Origin: Escherichia coli | Lineage (GTDB): Bacteria > Pseudomonadota > Gammaproteobacteria > Enterobacterales > Enterobacteriaceae | DNA: 64,000 nucleotides | Strand: one strand, 5' to 3' | NCBI RefSeq assembly: GCF_013315695.1 | Contig: NZ_CP054353.1 | Shown here: piece after piece, positions 15,552 through 29,686 of the stretch | Numbering within the stretch: the stretch's first letter is position 1 | How the letters are laid out: every line of letters begins with the position of its first letter | Translations under genes and position numbers: made by a program | The notes under the pieces: generated by a model | Databases searched by the model: none | What the model was told of the DNA's origin: nothing | The model's input: only the letters and a program-made list of their open reading frames with translations

Positions 15552-15993
15552 TTTATTTACCTCGGGTACTTATGCTGATTTTTATTATTATGGGGAAGGT
15601 GTTATTTATGAGTTTTATTTATGCCGTTACGGCAATGAACTCGGGAATTAGTATAATCAGCGCGAGAATAATAATCATTGTGCAAATGCTAATTTAATTA
15701 ATACTATTTAAATATTATTTTGAGCATATGCACATAAGGTTGCGCGCTAAAGCACAGATTTGCGCTTTACCTTGCCGGGCGGCACTGCAATCCCTGAAAT
15801 GATTGACATTGATCACATTTCTGCGTTTAAACTCCTGACATTCTTATTTCACCCAATGAAGTAATTTATTTTTAAATGAGACCAGGTCCTCATTTTAATA
15901 ACCCCTGGCTGGAGAATATTGCACAATGGCCAACATCGAAATCAGACAAGAAACGCCAACTGCGTTTTATATAAAAGTTCACGACACAGATAA

Positions 15994-16002
15994 TGTGGCA
16001 AT
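15994..16002. repeat. left copy of 9-bp IS1 target-site duplication TGTGGCAAT
   Basis: Identical 9-mer directly flanks both IS1 ends (15994..16002 and 16771..16779). Confidence 0.9.
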
Positions 16003-16017
16003 GGTAATGACTCCAAC

Positions 16018-16521
16018 TTATTGATAGTGTTTTATGTTCAGATAATGCCCGATGACTTTGTCATGCAGCTCCACCGATTTTGAGAACGACAGCGACTTCC
16101 GTCCCAGCCGTGCCAGGTGCTGCCTCAGATTCAGGTTATGCCGCTCAATTCGCTGCGTATATCGCTTGCTGATTACGTGCAGCTTTCCCTTCAGGCGGGA
16201 TTCATACAGCGGCCAGCCATCCGTCATCCATATCACCACGTCAAAGGGTGACAGCAGGCTCATAAGACGCCCCAGCGTCGCCATAGTGCGTTCACCGAAT
16301 ACGTGCGCAACAACCGTCTTCCGGAGCCTGTCATACGCGTAAAACAGCCAGCGCTGGCGCGATTTAGCCCCGACATAGCCCCACTGTTCGTCCATTTCCG
16401 CGCAGACGATGACGTCACTGCCCGGCTGTATGCGCGAGGTTACCGACTGCGGCCTGAGTTTTTTAAGTGACGTAAAATCGTGTTGAGGCCAACGCCCATA
16501 ATGCGGGCTGTTGCCCGGCAT
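16018..16521 (-). CDS. insB: IS1 InsB (transposase C-terminal part; expressed as InsAB' by -1 frameshift)
   Basis: 167-aa [56 protein letters not shown]... Confidence 0.93.
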
Positions 16522-16715
16522 CCAACGCCATTCATGGCCATATCAATGATTTTCTGGTGCGTACCGGGTTGAGAAGCGGTGTAAGTGAACTGCAGTTGCC
16601 ATGTTTTACGGCAGTGAGAGCAGAGATAGCGCTGATGTCCGGCGGTGCTTTTGCCGTTACGCACCACCCCGTCAGTAGCTGAACAGGAGGGACAGCTGAT
16701 AGAAACAGAAGCCAC
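16440..16715 (-). CDS. insA: IS1 InsA (transposition repressor / transposase N-terminal part)
   Basis: 91-aa [45 protein letters not shown]... with zinc-finger-like Cys pairs. Confidence 0.93.
16458..16466 (-). promoter_or_regulatory. IS1 programmed -1 ribosomal frameshift site (A6C motif)
   Basis: Plus strand GTTTTTTAA is the reverse complement of TTAAAAAAC in the insA/insB overlap. Confidence 0.7.
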
Positions 16716-16770
16716 TGGAGCACCTCAAAAACACAATCATACACTAAATCAGTAAGTTGGCAGCATCACC

Positions 16771-16779
16771 TGTGGCAAT
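16771..16779. repeat. right copy of 9-bp IS1 target-site duplication TGTGGCAAT
   Basis: See left copy. Confidence 0.9.
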
Positions 16780-18422
16780 TATTGTTAATGATAATGGCCT
16801 GAAAGCAGGAACGCGTTTTCCGGATGAGCTGGAATTAATTGAACATATTCCCCAGGGGCATAAAGTCGCATTGCTGGACATTCCAGCTAATGGTGAAATT
16901 ATTCGTTATGGCGAAGTGATTGGTTACGCCGTGCGCGCAATCCCACGCGGAAGCTGGATCGACGAATCAATGGTTGTACTACCGGAAGCGCCGCCGTTAC
17001 ACACGCTGCCACTGGCAACCAAAGTCCCGGAACCCTTACCGCCGCTGGAAGGATACACCTTTGAGGGCTATCGCAATGCCGATGGCAGCGTGGGCACTAA
17101 AAACCTGCTCGGCATCACCACCAGCGTCCACTGTGTAGCAGGCGTGGTGGACTATGTAGTAAAAATCATTGAACGCGATCTGCTACCGAAATACCCGAAC
17201 GTCGATGGCGTGGTGGGGCTGAATCATTTGTACGGCTGTGGCGTGGCGATTAACGCACCGGCGGCAGTTGTGCCTATTCGTACCATCCACAATATTTCGC
17301 TGAACCCTAACTTTGGCGGCGAAGTAATGGTGATTGGTCTGGGTTGTGAAAAGTTGCAGCCTGAGCGCCTGCTGACTGGAACGGATGATGTGCAAGCTAT
17401 TCCAGTAGAAAGCGCCAGCATTGTCAGTTTGCAGGATGAAAAGCATGTCGGCTTTCAGTCCATGGTCGAGGATATTTTGCAGGTCGCCGAACGCCATTTG
17501 CACAAACTGAATCGACGGCAGCGAGAAACCTGTCCGGCTTCAGAACTGGTTGTTGGCATGCAGTGCGGTGGCAGCGATGCGTTTTCTGGCGTAACGGCAA
17601 ACCCGGCGGTTGGGTATGCGTCTGATCTACTGGTGCGCTGCGGCGCAACGGTGATGTTTTCAGAAGTCACGGAAGTGCGTGACGCGATCCATCTGCTGAC
17701 ACCACGCGCAGTGAACGAAGAGGTCGGCAAACGGCTGCTGGAGGAGATGGAGTGGTACGATAACTATCTCAATATGGGAAAAACCGACCGCAGCGCCAAC
17801 CCTTCGCCGGGCAACAAGAAAGGCGGTCTGGCAAATGTGGTGGAGAAAGCGCTCGGCTCCATTGCTAAATCGGGTAAAAGTGCAATTGTTGAAGTGCTGT
17901 CGCCCGGCCAACGCCCGACTAAACGCGGATTAATTTACGCCGCGACGCCAGCCAGCGATTTTGTCTGTGGCACGCAACAGGTGGCTTCGGGTATCACCGT
18001 GCAAGTGTTTACGACCGGTCGCGGTACGCCGTACGGCCTGATGGCGGTACCCGTCATTAAAATGGCAACCCGCACCGAGCTGGCGAACCGCTGGTTTGAT
18101 TTAATGGATATTAATGCGGGCACCATCGCTACCGGCGAAGAAACTATTGAAGAGGTGGGCTGGAAGTTGTTCCACTTTATTCTCGACGTCGCCAGCGGGA
18201 AGAAGAAAACCTTCTCAGATCAATGGGGACTGCATAACCAGCTGGCGGTGTTTAACCCAGCACCGGTGACCTGATTTCTTTTGGAACGTCCCTCGCAAAA
18301 CATGGCCTTAGTGCCATGTTTTTATTGTTTAAAGTCCCCACGTCCATTAATAATGCATTTGCATTACCTTAGTTCAAGCTTATAATTTGAGCAGAAAACA
18401 GGCTGTAAAAGGACAGTGAATC

Positions 18423-26856: not shown

Positions 26857-27729
<873 letters not shown>

Positions 27730-27880
27730 TCATTAGTTTTTTATGATTTATCCCAATGTACTTCCCGATTAATATCGGGGAGTGCCTTAATGGAAAAGGA
27801 GATAACTAAACCTTAATAAATACATCAGTAAAATATCGCAACAATAATATATTTTAAAAAATTATGGTAATGACTCCAAC

Positions 27881-28384
27881 TTATTGATAGTGTTTTATGT
27901 TCAGATAATGCCCGATGACTTTGTCATGCAGCTCCACCGATTTTGAGAACGACAGCGACTTCCGTCCCAGCCGTGCCAGGTGCTGCCTCAGATTCAGGTT
28001 ATGCCGCTCAATTCGCTGCGTATATCGCTTGCTGATTACGTGCAGCTTTCCCTTCAGGCGGGATTCATACAGCGGCCAGCCATCCGTCATCCATATCACC
28101 ACGTCAAAGGGTGACAGCAGGCTCATAAGACGCCCCAGCGTCGCCATAGTGCGTTCACCGAATACGTGCGCAACAACCGTCTTCCGGAGCCTGTCATACG
28201 CGTAAAACAGCCAGCGCTGGCGCGATTTAGCCCCGACATAGCCCCACTGTTCGTCCATTTCCGCGCAGACGATGACGTCACTGCCCGGCTGTATGCGCGA
28301 GGTTACCGACTGCGGCCTGAGTTTTTTAAGTGACGTAAAATCGTGTTGAGGCCAACGCCCATAATGCGGGCTGTTGCCCGGCAT
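27881..28384 (-). CDS. insB: IS1 InsB
   Basis: 167-aa ORF identical to copy 1 InsB. Confidence 0.93.
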
Positions 28385-28578
28385 CCAACGCCATTCATGG
28401 CCATATCAATGATTTTCTGGTGCGTACCGGGTTGAGAAGCGGTGTAAGTGAACTGCAGTTGCCATGTTTTACGGCAGTGAGAGCAGAGATAGCGCTGATG
28501 TCCGGCGGTGCTTTTGCCGTTACGCACCACCCCGTCAGTAACTGAACAGGAGGGACAGCTGATAGAAACAGAAGCCAC
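28303..28578 (-). CDS. insA: IS1 InsA
   Basis: 91-aa ORF; differs from copy 1 at one residue (CSVTDG vs CSATDG). Confidence 0.93.
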
Positions 28579-28633
28579 TGGAGCACCTCAAAAACACCAT
28601 CATACACTAAATCAGTAAGTTGGCAGCATCACC

Positions 28634-28844
28634 ACAAACGGTACGTAAATTGGTAGAAGGTGGTATTGACCTGAAAGATGTCAACGTCGGCAATATGCAT
28701 TTCTCGGAAGGGAAAAAGCAAATCAGCAGTAAAGTTTATGTCGATGACCAGGATCTCGCGGACTTACGTTTTATTAAACAACGTGGCGTGAATGTTTTCA
28801 TTCAGGACGTCCCTGGCGATCAAAAAGAACAAATCCCTGACTAA
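28634..28844 (+). pseudogene. agaB: agaB (galactosamine PTS EIIB), 5-prime truncated; only about the C-terminal 69 codons remain
   Basis: Frame ...QTVRKLVEGGIDLKDVNVGNMHFSEGKKQISSKVYVDDQDLADLRFIKQRGVNVFIQDVPGDQKEQIPD matches the AgaB C-terminus and begins directly at the IS1 end. Confidence 0.85.
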
Positions 28845-28882: not shown

Positions 28883-29686
28883 ATGCATGAAATAACCCTA
28901 CTTCAGGGATTATCCCTGGCGGCGTTAGTTTTCGTTCTGGGGATTGATTTTTGGCTGGAAGCCTTATTTTTATTCCGCCCGATAATCGTTTGTACCCTAA
29001 CTGGCGCTATTCTCGGTGATATTCAGACTGGCTTAATTACCGGTGGTCTGACAGAGTTGGCTTTCGCCGGATTAACCCCTGCAGGTGGTGTTCAACCGCC
29101 CAACCCGATTATGGCGGGTCTGATGACCACCGTCATTGCATGGTCTACGGGCGTTGATGCCAAAACGGCAATTGGTCTTGGCCTGCCGTTTAGTTTGTTA
29201 ATGCAGTACGTCATTCTGTTCTTCTATTCCGCTTTCTCATTATTTATGACCAAAGCCGATAAATGCGCAAAAGAGGCGGATACGGCAGCATTTTCCCGAC
29301 TTAACTGGACAACGATGCTCATCGTCGCTTCAGCGTATGCGGTGATTGCTTTCCTCTGTACTTACCTGGCACAAGGGGCGATGCAGGCGCTGGTGAAAGC
29401 GATGCCCGCCTGGCTGACCCACGGCTTTGAAGTGGCTGGCGGTATTCTGCCTGCCGTTGGTTTTGGCTTGCTGCTGCGCGTGATGTTCAAAGCGCAATAT
29501 ATCCCTTACCTGATCGCCGGTTTCCTGTTCGTTTGCTACATCCAGGTCAGCAACCTGTTGCCGGTTGCCGTGCTGGGCGCAGGCTTTGCGGTGTATGAGT
29601 TTTTCAATGCGAAATCCCGGCAGCAAGCGCAACCGCAGCCCGTTGTCAGTAAAAATGAAGAAGAGGACTACAGCAATGGGATCTGA
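28883..29686 (+). CDS. agaC: galactosamine PTS EIIC component AgaC
   Basis: 267-aa membrane ORF MHEITLLQGLSLAALVFVLGIDFW... Confidence 0.9.
   Translation: MHEITLLQGLSLAALVFVLGIDFWLEALFLFRPIIVCTLTGAILGDIQTGLITGGLTELAFAGLTPAGGVQPPNPIMAGLMTTVIAWSTGVDAKTAIGLGLPFSLLMQYVILFFYSAFSLFMTKADKCAKEADTAAFSRLNWTTMLIVASAYAVIAFLCTYLAQGAMQALVKAMPAWLTHGFEVAGGILPAVGFGLLLRVMFKAQYIPYLIAGFLFVCYIQVSNLLPVAVLGAGFAVYEFFNAKSRQQAQPQPVVSKNEEEDYSNGI

Follow-up and report, generated by a model that had tools for sequence, protein, structure and literature searches.

Two IS1 lesions in garD and agaB of Escherichia coli and the probably incidental nature of the in-frame TTG at the IS1 end

The stretch of Escherichia coli DNA that was analyzed here (64,000 nucleotides, referred to below as the window) contains two copies of IS1, each of which is followed by a truncated gene, garD in one case and agaB in the other. 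At both junctions the outward end of the element supplies a TTG codon that is in frame with the remainder of the gene. This raises the question whether the element that disrupted garD also provides a start that rescues it, so that garD would be attenuated rather than null, as an earlier note on this DNA had put forward. We found no support for such a rescue: the TTG lacks a Shine-Dalgarno (SD) sequence, it is part of a -35-like hexamer, and the hybrid protein has lost Asp22 together with a conserved strand. Very probably both genes suffered ordinary IS1 lesions, in which the TTG-started ORFs are incidental, the hybrid proteins are not made to a meaningful extent and garD is null or nearly so.

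IS1 copy A occupies positions 16003..16770 (- strand, 768 bp), with its IRR end at 16003 and its IRL (insA-proximal) end at 16770. According to the ORF listing insA is found at 16440..16715 (-), and the insB' frame, which overlaps insA on the same strand, at 16018..16521 (-). For copy B (27866..28633, -, 768 bp) the listing gives insA at 28303..28578 (-) and the insB' frame at 27881..28384 (-). The terminal inverted repeats GGTGATGCTGCCAACTTACTGAT and GGTAATGACTCCAACTTATTGAT are matched exactly at each end of both 768-bp copies, and both contain the insA frame (91 aa) and the overlapping insB' frame that are characteristic of the IS1 family. In both, the transposase is encoded on the - strand and the IRL (GGTGATGCTGCCAACTTACTGAT) points rightward into the downstream gene. 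The two copies have the same orientation and differ at 2 nt (16732 and 16678 in copy A versus 28595 and 28541 in copy B). One of these differences makes residue 13 of InsA an Ala in copy A and a Val in copy B, and the other is located in the untranslated stretch between IRL and insA. On an ENA contig (L113), the copy-B base is present at the latter position beside the garD junction, which probably resulted from a collapse of the IS1 repeat during assembly.

Copy A is flanked on both sides by a perfect 9-bp target duplication, TGTGGCAAT (15994..16002 and 16771..16779, strandless), as is expected of a simple insertion, and has thus entered codons 24-26 of garD by simple transposition. On the left-hand side, garD runs from its native ATG at 15926 through codons 1-26 into IS1, where a TGA stop (to 16024) is encountered after 22 nt, leaving a 5' remnant that encodes a peptide of 32 aa (15926..16024, +). 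To the right, a hybrid ORF of 505 aa, MAASP-GarD(24-523), extends over 16757..18274 (+) and consists of TTG GCA GCA TCA CC from IS1, garD codons 24-523 and the stop. The hybrid had been described as missing the first 25 residues of GarD; the correct figure is residues 1-23, as the right-hand copy of the duplication restores codons V24-A25-I26.

The agaB junction has a different origin. A target duplication is absent around copy B (flanks AAAAATTAT and ACAAACGGT), and comparison with an intact agaB locus (L004) revealed that 296 bp are missing, namely 30 bp upstream of agaB including the ribosome-binding site, codons 1-88 and 2 nt of codon 89. Given the lack of a duplication and the missing 296 bp, the agaB junction represents the endpoint of an IS1-associated deletion and not a simple insertion. 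Adjacent deletions made by IS1/Tn9 are known to leave the remaining element without direct repeats (PMC9330008, section 5.2.1). At the endpoint, the native sequence …ACG CC/A CAA (L004 2160..2164; the slash marks the junction) corresponds to …TCA CC/A CAA at the IS1 end (window 28632..28636), so that the terminal CC of IS1 stands in for the CC of AgaB Pro89 and this residue is regenerated; the match may be coincidental or reflect microhomology of 2 nt. What remains of agaB itself, at the 3' side (28634..28844, +), is contained within the second hybrid ORF, MAASP-AgaB(90-158) (28620..28844, +, 74 aa), which starts at a TTG and begins with MAASPQTVRKLVEGG. Of the 148 positions of the PTSIIB_sorb model (Pfam), this AgaB fragment matches no more than 81-148, and 1-80 are missing. 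EIIB proteins of the mannose/sorbose family of the PTS possess a phosphorylatable histidine near the N-terminus. In AgaB this is His17 (motif RIDNRLVHGQV), which falls in the deleted part; a complete EIIB is therefore not encoded and the fragment is certainly non-functional as such.

Within the agaS-kbaY-agaBCDI operon, copy B is situated between kbaY (26869..27729, +), which is intact and lies upstream, and agaCDI, the first gene of which (agaC, 28883..29686, +) is an intact ORF with its own SD. IS1 probably exerts polarity on agaC, agaD and agaI. The agaVWEF-nagA genes, located upstream, are intact according to the annotation of the nearest genome, E. coli MSB1_4I (NZ_LR898874.1), and the layout around copy B predicts that N-acetylgalactosamine can be used and galactosamine cannot.

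The comparison with MSB1_4I also bears on the age of the two lesions. The window is 100% identical to this genome across 3.3 kb left of the garD insertion and shows 6 mismatches over 26.3 kb to the right of it, and the sole structural difference is the presence of IS1 and the 9-bp duplication in garD. In MSB1_4I garD is intact and the IS1-agaB junction is shared at 100% identity; its RefSeq annotation lists a pseudogene 'missing N-terminus' at coordinates that match the 74-aa ORF and describes the element as an IS1A family transposase with programmed frameshift. Since MSB1_4I shares the agaB junction but has an intact garD, the garD insertion is a recent, strain-level event, and to judge by this shared junction the agaB lesion is the older of the two. 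When IS1 and one copy of the duplication were removed in silico, the resulting GarD matched the protein of MSB1_4I at 100% identity, and 0 mismatches to MSB1_4I were present in the garD remainder itself. Considering the recent date of the insertion, the intact appearance of the remainder reflects its youth and not selection. None of 5,426 complete E. coli genomes carried the garD::IS1 allele; its junction was recovered on 11 contigs in other assemblies, and given these contigs the garD::IS1 clone persists.

Insertions of IS1 near garD were encountered in other genomes as well. Two apparently full-length matches (H5 and H7) were considered as carriers of the same garD allele and were dismissed, as the element occupies different sites, upstream of garD and around codon 72. 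Independent IS1 insertions are present upstream of an intact garD in EC5931 and around codon 72 in HUM3355 (compared for the garP-garD region: L001, 3199..3896; L002, 3558..4255; window, 15600..17200), and around 10 further genomes carry IS1 at varying positions within the 1.6-kb garP-garD query. The garP-garD region and the 5' end of garD could be a target hot spot of IS1, or there could be recurrent selection for altered or lost use of galactarate. With respect to agaB, the query was covered for at least 80% in 273 complete genomes besides MSB1_4I (274 when it is included). The idea that these 273 genomes carry an ancestral IS1 upstream of an intact agaB was rejected, because in EC25 (H32), which was inspected, the element resides in agaC and is unrelated. 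In this strain agaC (L004 2412..3992) is split by IS1 into pseudogene parts of 99 nt and 711 nt, and the other listed matches of the agaB query have the same feature annotation as EC25. If the site is shared by the 273 genomes, agaC::IS1 is a widespread lineage marker that is distinct from the agaB lesion.

The in-frame TTG hybrid ORFs that had been reported for both IS1 ends were recovered at exactly the same coordinates, 16757..18274 and 28620..28844, and their existence follows from the sequence of the element. The outward end at the IRL reads …CAG TAA G TTG GCA GCA TCA CC/N, where the slash marks the edge of IS1. Past the in-frame TAA, the first start codon is the TTG (16757 in copy A, 28620 in copy B), and the frame is open as far as the edge of IS1. 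The Pro in MAASP is encoded by the CC of IS1 together with the first base of the flank, and is a Pro with any flank. The IRR, in reverse complement, reads …AAG TTG GAG TCA TTA CC and would yield MESLP-. The TTG is part of the AAGTTGG core that is common to both inverted repeats, and the repeat itself accounts for it. The MAASP- ORFs are due to the final 14 nt of the inverted repeat (TTGGCAGCATCACC), with one TTG and no stop in that frame, and a co-oriented gene that is struck in that phase (one in three) gains a TTG-started ORF. As both ends of IS1 combine an outward TTG with an open frame, a spurious long ORF is to be expected in one third of co-oriented insertions.

The earlier note had allowed that two in-frame fusions could be due to chance (about 1 in 9), and this holds, with a probability of 1/3 for each co-oriented junction. 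Additional data came from a survey in which the terminal 30 nt of the IS1 IRL were scanned for, using one genome per species, and the open length of the three frames was determined past 105 unique other IS1 IRL junctions. Counts were made for junctions at which one frame alone stayed open for 100 codons or more. In total, the open frame was the TTG frame in 8 cases, the +1 frame in 9 and the +2 frame in 7; after exclusion of this window, L002 and L004, the ratio was 7:8:6 (n = 21 independent junctions). Among these 21 independent junctions with at least 100 open codons there was no excess of in-frame cases over 1/3 that could be taken as a sign of selection. Exact IS1 ends were also found on short contigs labelled Streptomyces, Sporosarcina and Bacillus (loci L012, L043, L067 and L072), which most likely represent enterobacterial or cloning-host contamination.

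A protein look-up returned no record of the exact 505-aa protein that starts at the TTG. A version of 500 aa that starts at GTG16772 is recorded on 11 contigs of other assemblies, for instance ENA ERZ27238783, a contig that starts inside the IS1 end; on independent assemblies of the garD::IS1 allele the gene caller thus picked GTG16772 and not the TTG.

The signals around the TTG argue against its use. The best anti-SD pairing in the 20 nt upstream of TTG16757 amounts to -0.2 kcal/mol (GUAAG, at a spacing of 0), while the native start of garD reaches -6.4 kcal/mol, agaC -6.9 and kbaY -5.8, and no ribosome-binding site was identified by anti-SD pairing 5-10 nt upstream of TTG16757. The 30 nt upstream are A-rich and, according to the RNA fold, essentially unstructured, and such a leader may permit weak SD-independent initiation at the TTG; the fold of the IS1-garD junction showed no special structure (z = 0.7). 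Antisense to insA there is a putative ORF of 36 aa (16645..16755, +), whose TAA stop (16753-16755) ends one base before TTG16757 (TAAgTTG). This arrangement could in principle allow termination-reinitiation.

Transcription of the TTG is equally problematic. A consensus scan of 15700..17100 yielded no + strand promoter-like sites within IS1 upstream of TTG16757, and an mRNA that contains the TTG would therefore need read-through from the native garD promoter across the entire element. Past the stop at 16024, such an mRNA would be untranslated for ~730 nt, and polar effects of IS1 are strong in either orientation. The scan did bring up an outward sigma70 promoter-like site at 16757..16785 (+), composed of the -35 hexamer TTGGCA (16757-16762) in the inverted repeat, a 17-nt spacer and the -10 hexamer TATTGT (16780-16785) in garD. 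As a pattern match only, it scores 9/12, with 4/6 matches in the -10 hexamer and no TG extension. TTG16757 forms the first half of TTGGCA, which is the only outward -35-like hexamer. Because the TTG sits in the -35 hexamer, a transcript from this site would exclude it: the predicted start, at ~16791-16794, lies ~35 nt past the TTG and downstream of both TTG16757 and GTG16772. The transcript would thus begin inside garD, without the ribosome-binding site and start of a complete gene, and the next in-frame starts are found at residue 57 or later, with SDs that are weak or badly spaced. Leaderless translation from ATG 16788 or ATG 16794 was considered and rejected, as both are out of frame and run into stops after 4 and 2 codons, respectively. 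A comparable -10 hexamer was found at only 10 of 110 IS1 IRL junctions, and at the agaB junction a -10-like hexamer was not found. On the opposite strand, an inward promoter-like site (CTGCCA-16-TATGAT, 16736..16763, -), which is presumably the insA promoter (PIRL), is located at the IRL, with a -35 that overlaps the outward TTGGCA. The IS1 inverted repeat has been described to carry an outward -35 that creates a hybrid promoter when a -10 is suitably spaced in the flank (PMC8764528; PMC9330008, the latter with reference to Prentki et al. 1986). Literature searches yielded no usable statement on the exact hexamer or on IS1 polarity; the promoter scan suggests that the outward -35 is TTGGCA.

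The description of the hybrid as a largely complete GarD is a fair one, since all three Pfam domains are still matched (SAF, positions 3-63 of 63; GD_AH_second, 1-136 of 136; GD_AH_C, 1-240 of 242). To assess what was lost, we searched 1.84 billion representatives for homologues and aligned GarD with 38 full-length ones (29-63% identity). Homology starts around residue 15-16, and residues 16-24, which include the strand I16-K17-V18-H19, are conserved over the 39 sequences. D22 is invariant (39/39), which is true of only 27 columns, and N23 occurs in 32 of the 39 sequences. In the hybrid, D22-N23 is replaced by Ser-Pro and the I16-H19 strand is gone, so that a residue that is invariant in the family is lacking. 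In the alignment with the N-domain structure of UxaA (3K3S), the match starts at GarD Y15 (YIKVHDTDNVA versus YIKIHALDNVA), and the AlphaFold model of GarD (mean pLDDT 92.7) shows disorder in residues 1-8 only, the blocks that cover residues 11-30 having mean pLDDT values of 91 and 96. Given that they include the invariant D22 and the conserved I16-H19 strand, the 23 missing residues do not constitute a dispensable tail. The catalytic metal site and the dimer interface reportedly reside in the second and third GarD domains (6U7L), and an N-terminally altered GarD, if made, might retain activity.

Several ways in which garD could have remained partly active have to be weighed against this background. 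The rescue as originally envisaged supposes that read-through, or an IS1 promoter that went unrecognised, generates a transcript with TTG16757, from which a partly active MAASP-GarD(24-523) is made. The in-frame 505-aa ORF, the retention of the three Pfam domains, the A-rich unstructured leader and the fact that the other gar genes are intact and identical to those of MSB1_4I are consistent with it, but a TTG, the weakest canonical start codon, would have to act without an SD, on a message for which no + strand promoter-like site exists in IS1 upstream and which would suffer from IS1 polarity and the ~730 untranslated nt past 16024. As the product would also miss the invariant D22 and a conserved strand, and in-frame IS1 fusions were not in excess across the survey, we consider this very unlikely. 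It is likewise improbable that the hybrid promoter TTGGCA-17-TATTGT transcribes garD from ~16792 and that an internal start, for which TTG16871 (residue 57), GTG16916, GTG16931 and ATG16970 (residue 90) are candidates, yields a GarD that misses most or all of SAF. Its 9/12 score with the optimal 17-nt spacing, the scarcity of comparable -10 hexamers at IRL junctions (10/110) and the documented IS1 cases (PMC8764528, PMC9330008) speak for such a promoter; against it stand the 4/6 match of the -10 without TG extension, the weak or badly spaced SDs of the internal starts and the loss of a domain that is present in all 38 full-length aligned homologues. Furthermore, its -35 would overlap the InsA-binding inverted repeat and the divergent insA promoter, in a genome with more than 40 IS1 matches.

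A role of the IS1 ends as portable start modules, each with an outward TTG and four open codons (MAASP- at IRL, MESLP- at IRR), from which weakly translated, retagged proteins would arise and garD would be a leaky knock-out that yields a partly active GarD(24-523) from read-through transcripts, seems highly improbable; if it were true, one third of the co-oriented insertions could yield an N-terminally retagged protein. Extremely unlikely, finally, is a reversible switch in which precise excision of IS1 between the 9-bp repeats restores garD at low frequency: the two 9-bp copies match perfectly and reconstruction returns the intact allele without any change, but precise excision of IS1 is rare, there is no sign of regulation or selection here, and the TTG would play no part.

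The preferred reading, that of two ordinary IS1 lesions, can be summarized as follows. In an IS1-rich E. coli lineage, an older IS1-associated deletion of 296 bp would have taken the ribosome-binding site and codons 1-88 of agaB, and garD would have been disrupted more recently, when IS1 inserted at codons 24-26 in a simple event that duplicated 9 bp. The bases of the inverted repeat that carry the TTG would double as the outward -35 box of IS1. On the basis of the observed structure, reading frames, missing signals and conservation, neither hybrid is likely to be made in meaningful amounts and the strain is most likely galactarate-negative, although there may be a trace of read-through expression across IS1 from the native, inducible garD promoter. 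For annotation purposes this means that the strain is to be called garD-negative (galactarate-negative) and agaB-negative (galactosamine-PTS-negative), and that the 505-aa and 500-aa garD ORFs produced by gene callers are to be treated as products of a truncated pseudogene and not as an isoform of GarD. Were the hybrid expressed and active after all, the N-terminal SAF strand would be dispensable, which would be a modest finding.

Both junctions can be related to known systems. The garD remainder resembles the GarD/UxaA dehydratases (PDB 6U7L, 3LAZ, 3K3S) in that it encodes SAF, GD_AH_second and GD_AH_C over residues 24-523, and differs from these in having lost Asp22, which is invariant, and the first of the conserved strands. 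Like the IS1 hybrid (fusion) promoters that activate bla, acrEF and afaA, the garD junction combines an outward -35-like hexamer in the inverted repeat with a -10-like hexamer at 17 nt in the flank. In those cases, however, the element precedes an intact gene that has its own ribosome-binding site, whereas at garD the start would fall inside the coding sequence, past all start codons that could give a near-full-length protein. Copy B is similar to the IS1-mediated adjacent deletions that result from intramolecular transposition, given the absence of direct repeats and the loss of 296 bp alongside the element (PMC9330008), with the difference that the original flank is ambiguous and that recombination between two IS1 copies may have been the cause instead. 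Copy A, finally, shares with the classical IS1 mutations in gal and lac the length of 768 bp, the canonical inverted repeats, the insA and insB' frames and the 9-bp target duplication within a coding sequence, and as in those mutations the gene is divided, which leaves a short peptide at the 5' side and a 3' part that has no promoter. The garD::IS1 allele is an ordinary case of insertional inactivation by IS1, an event of an already-known kind, and shows no essential difference from the classical inactivations with polarity.
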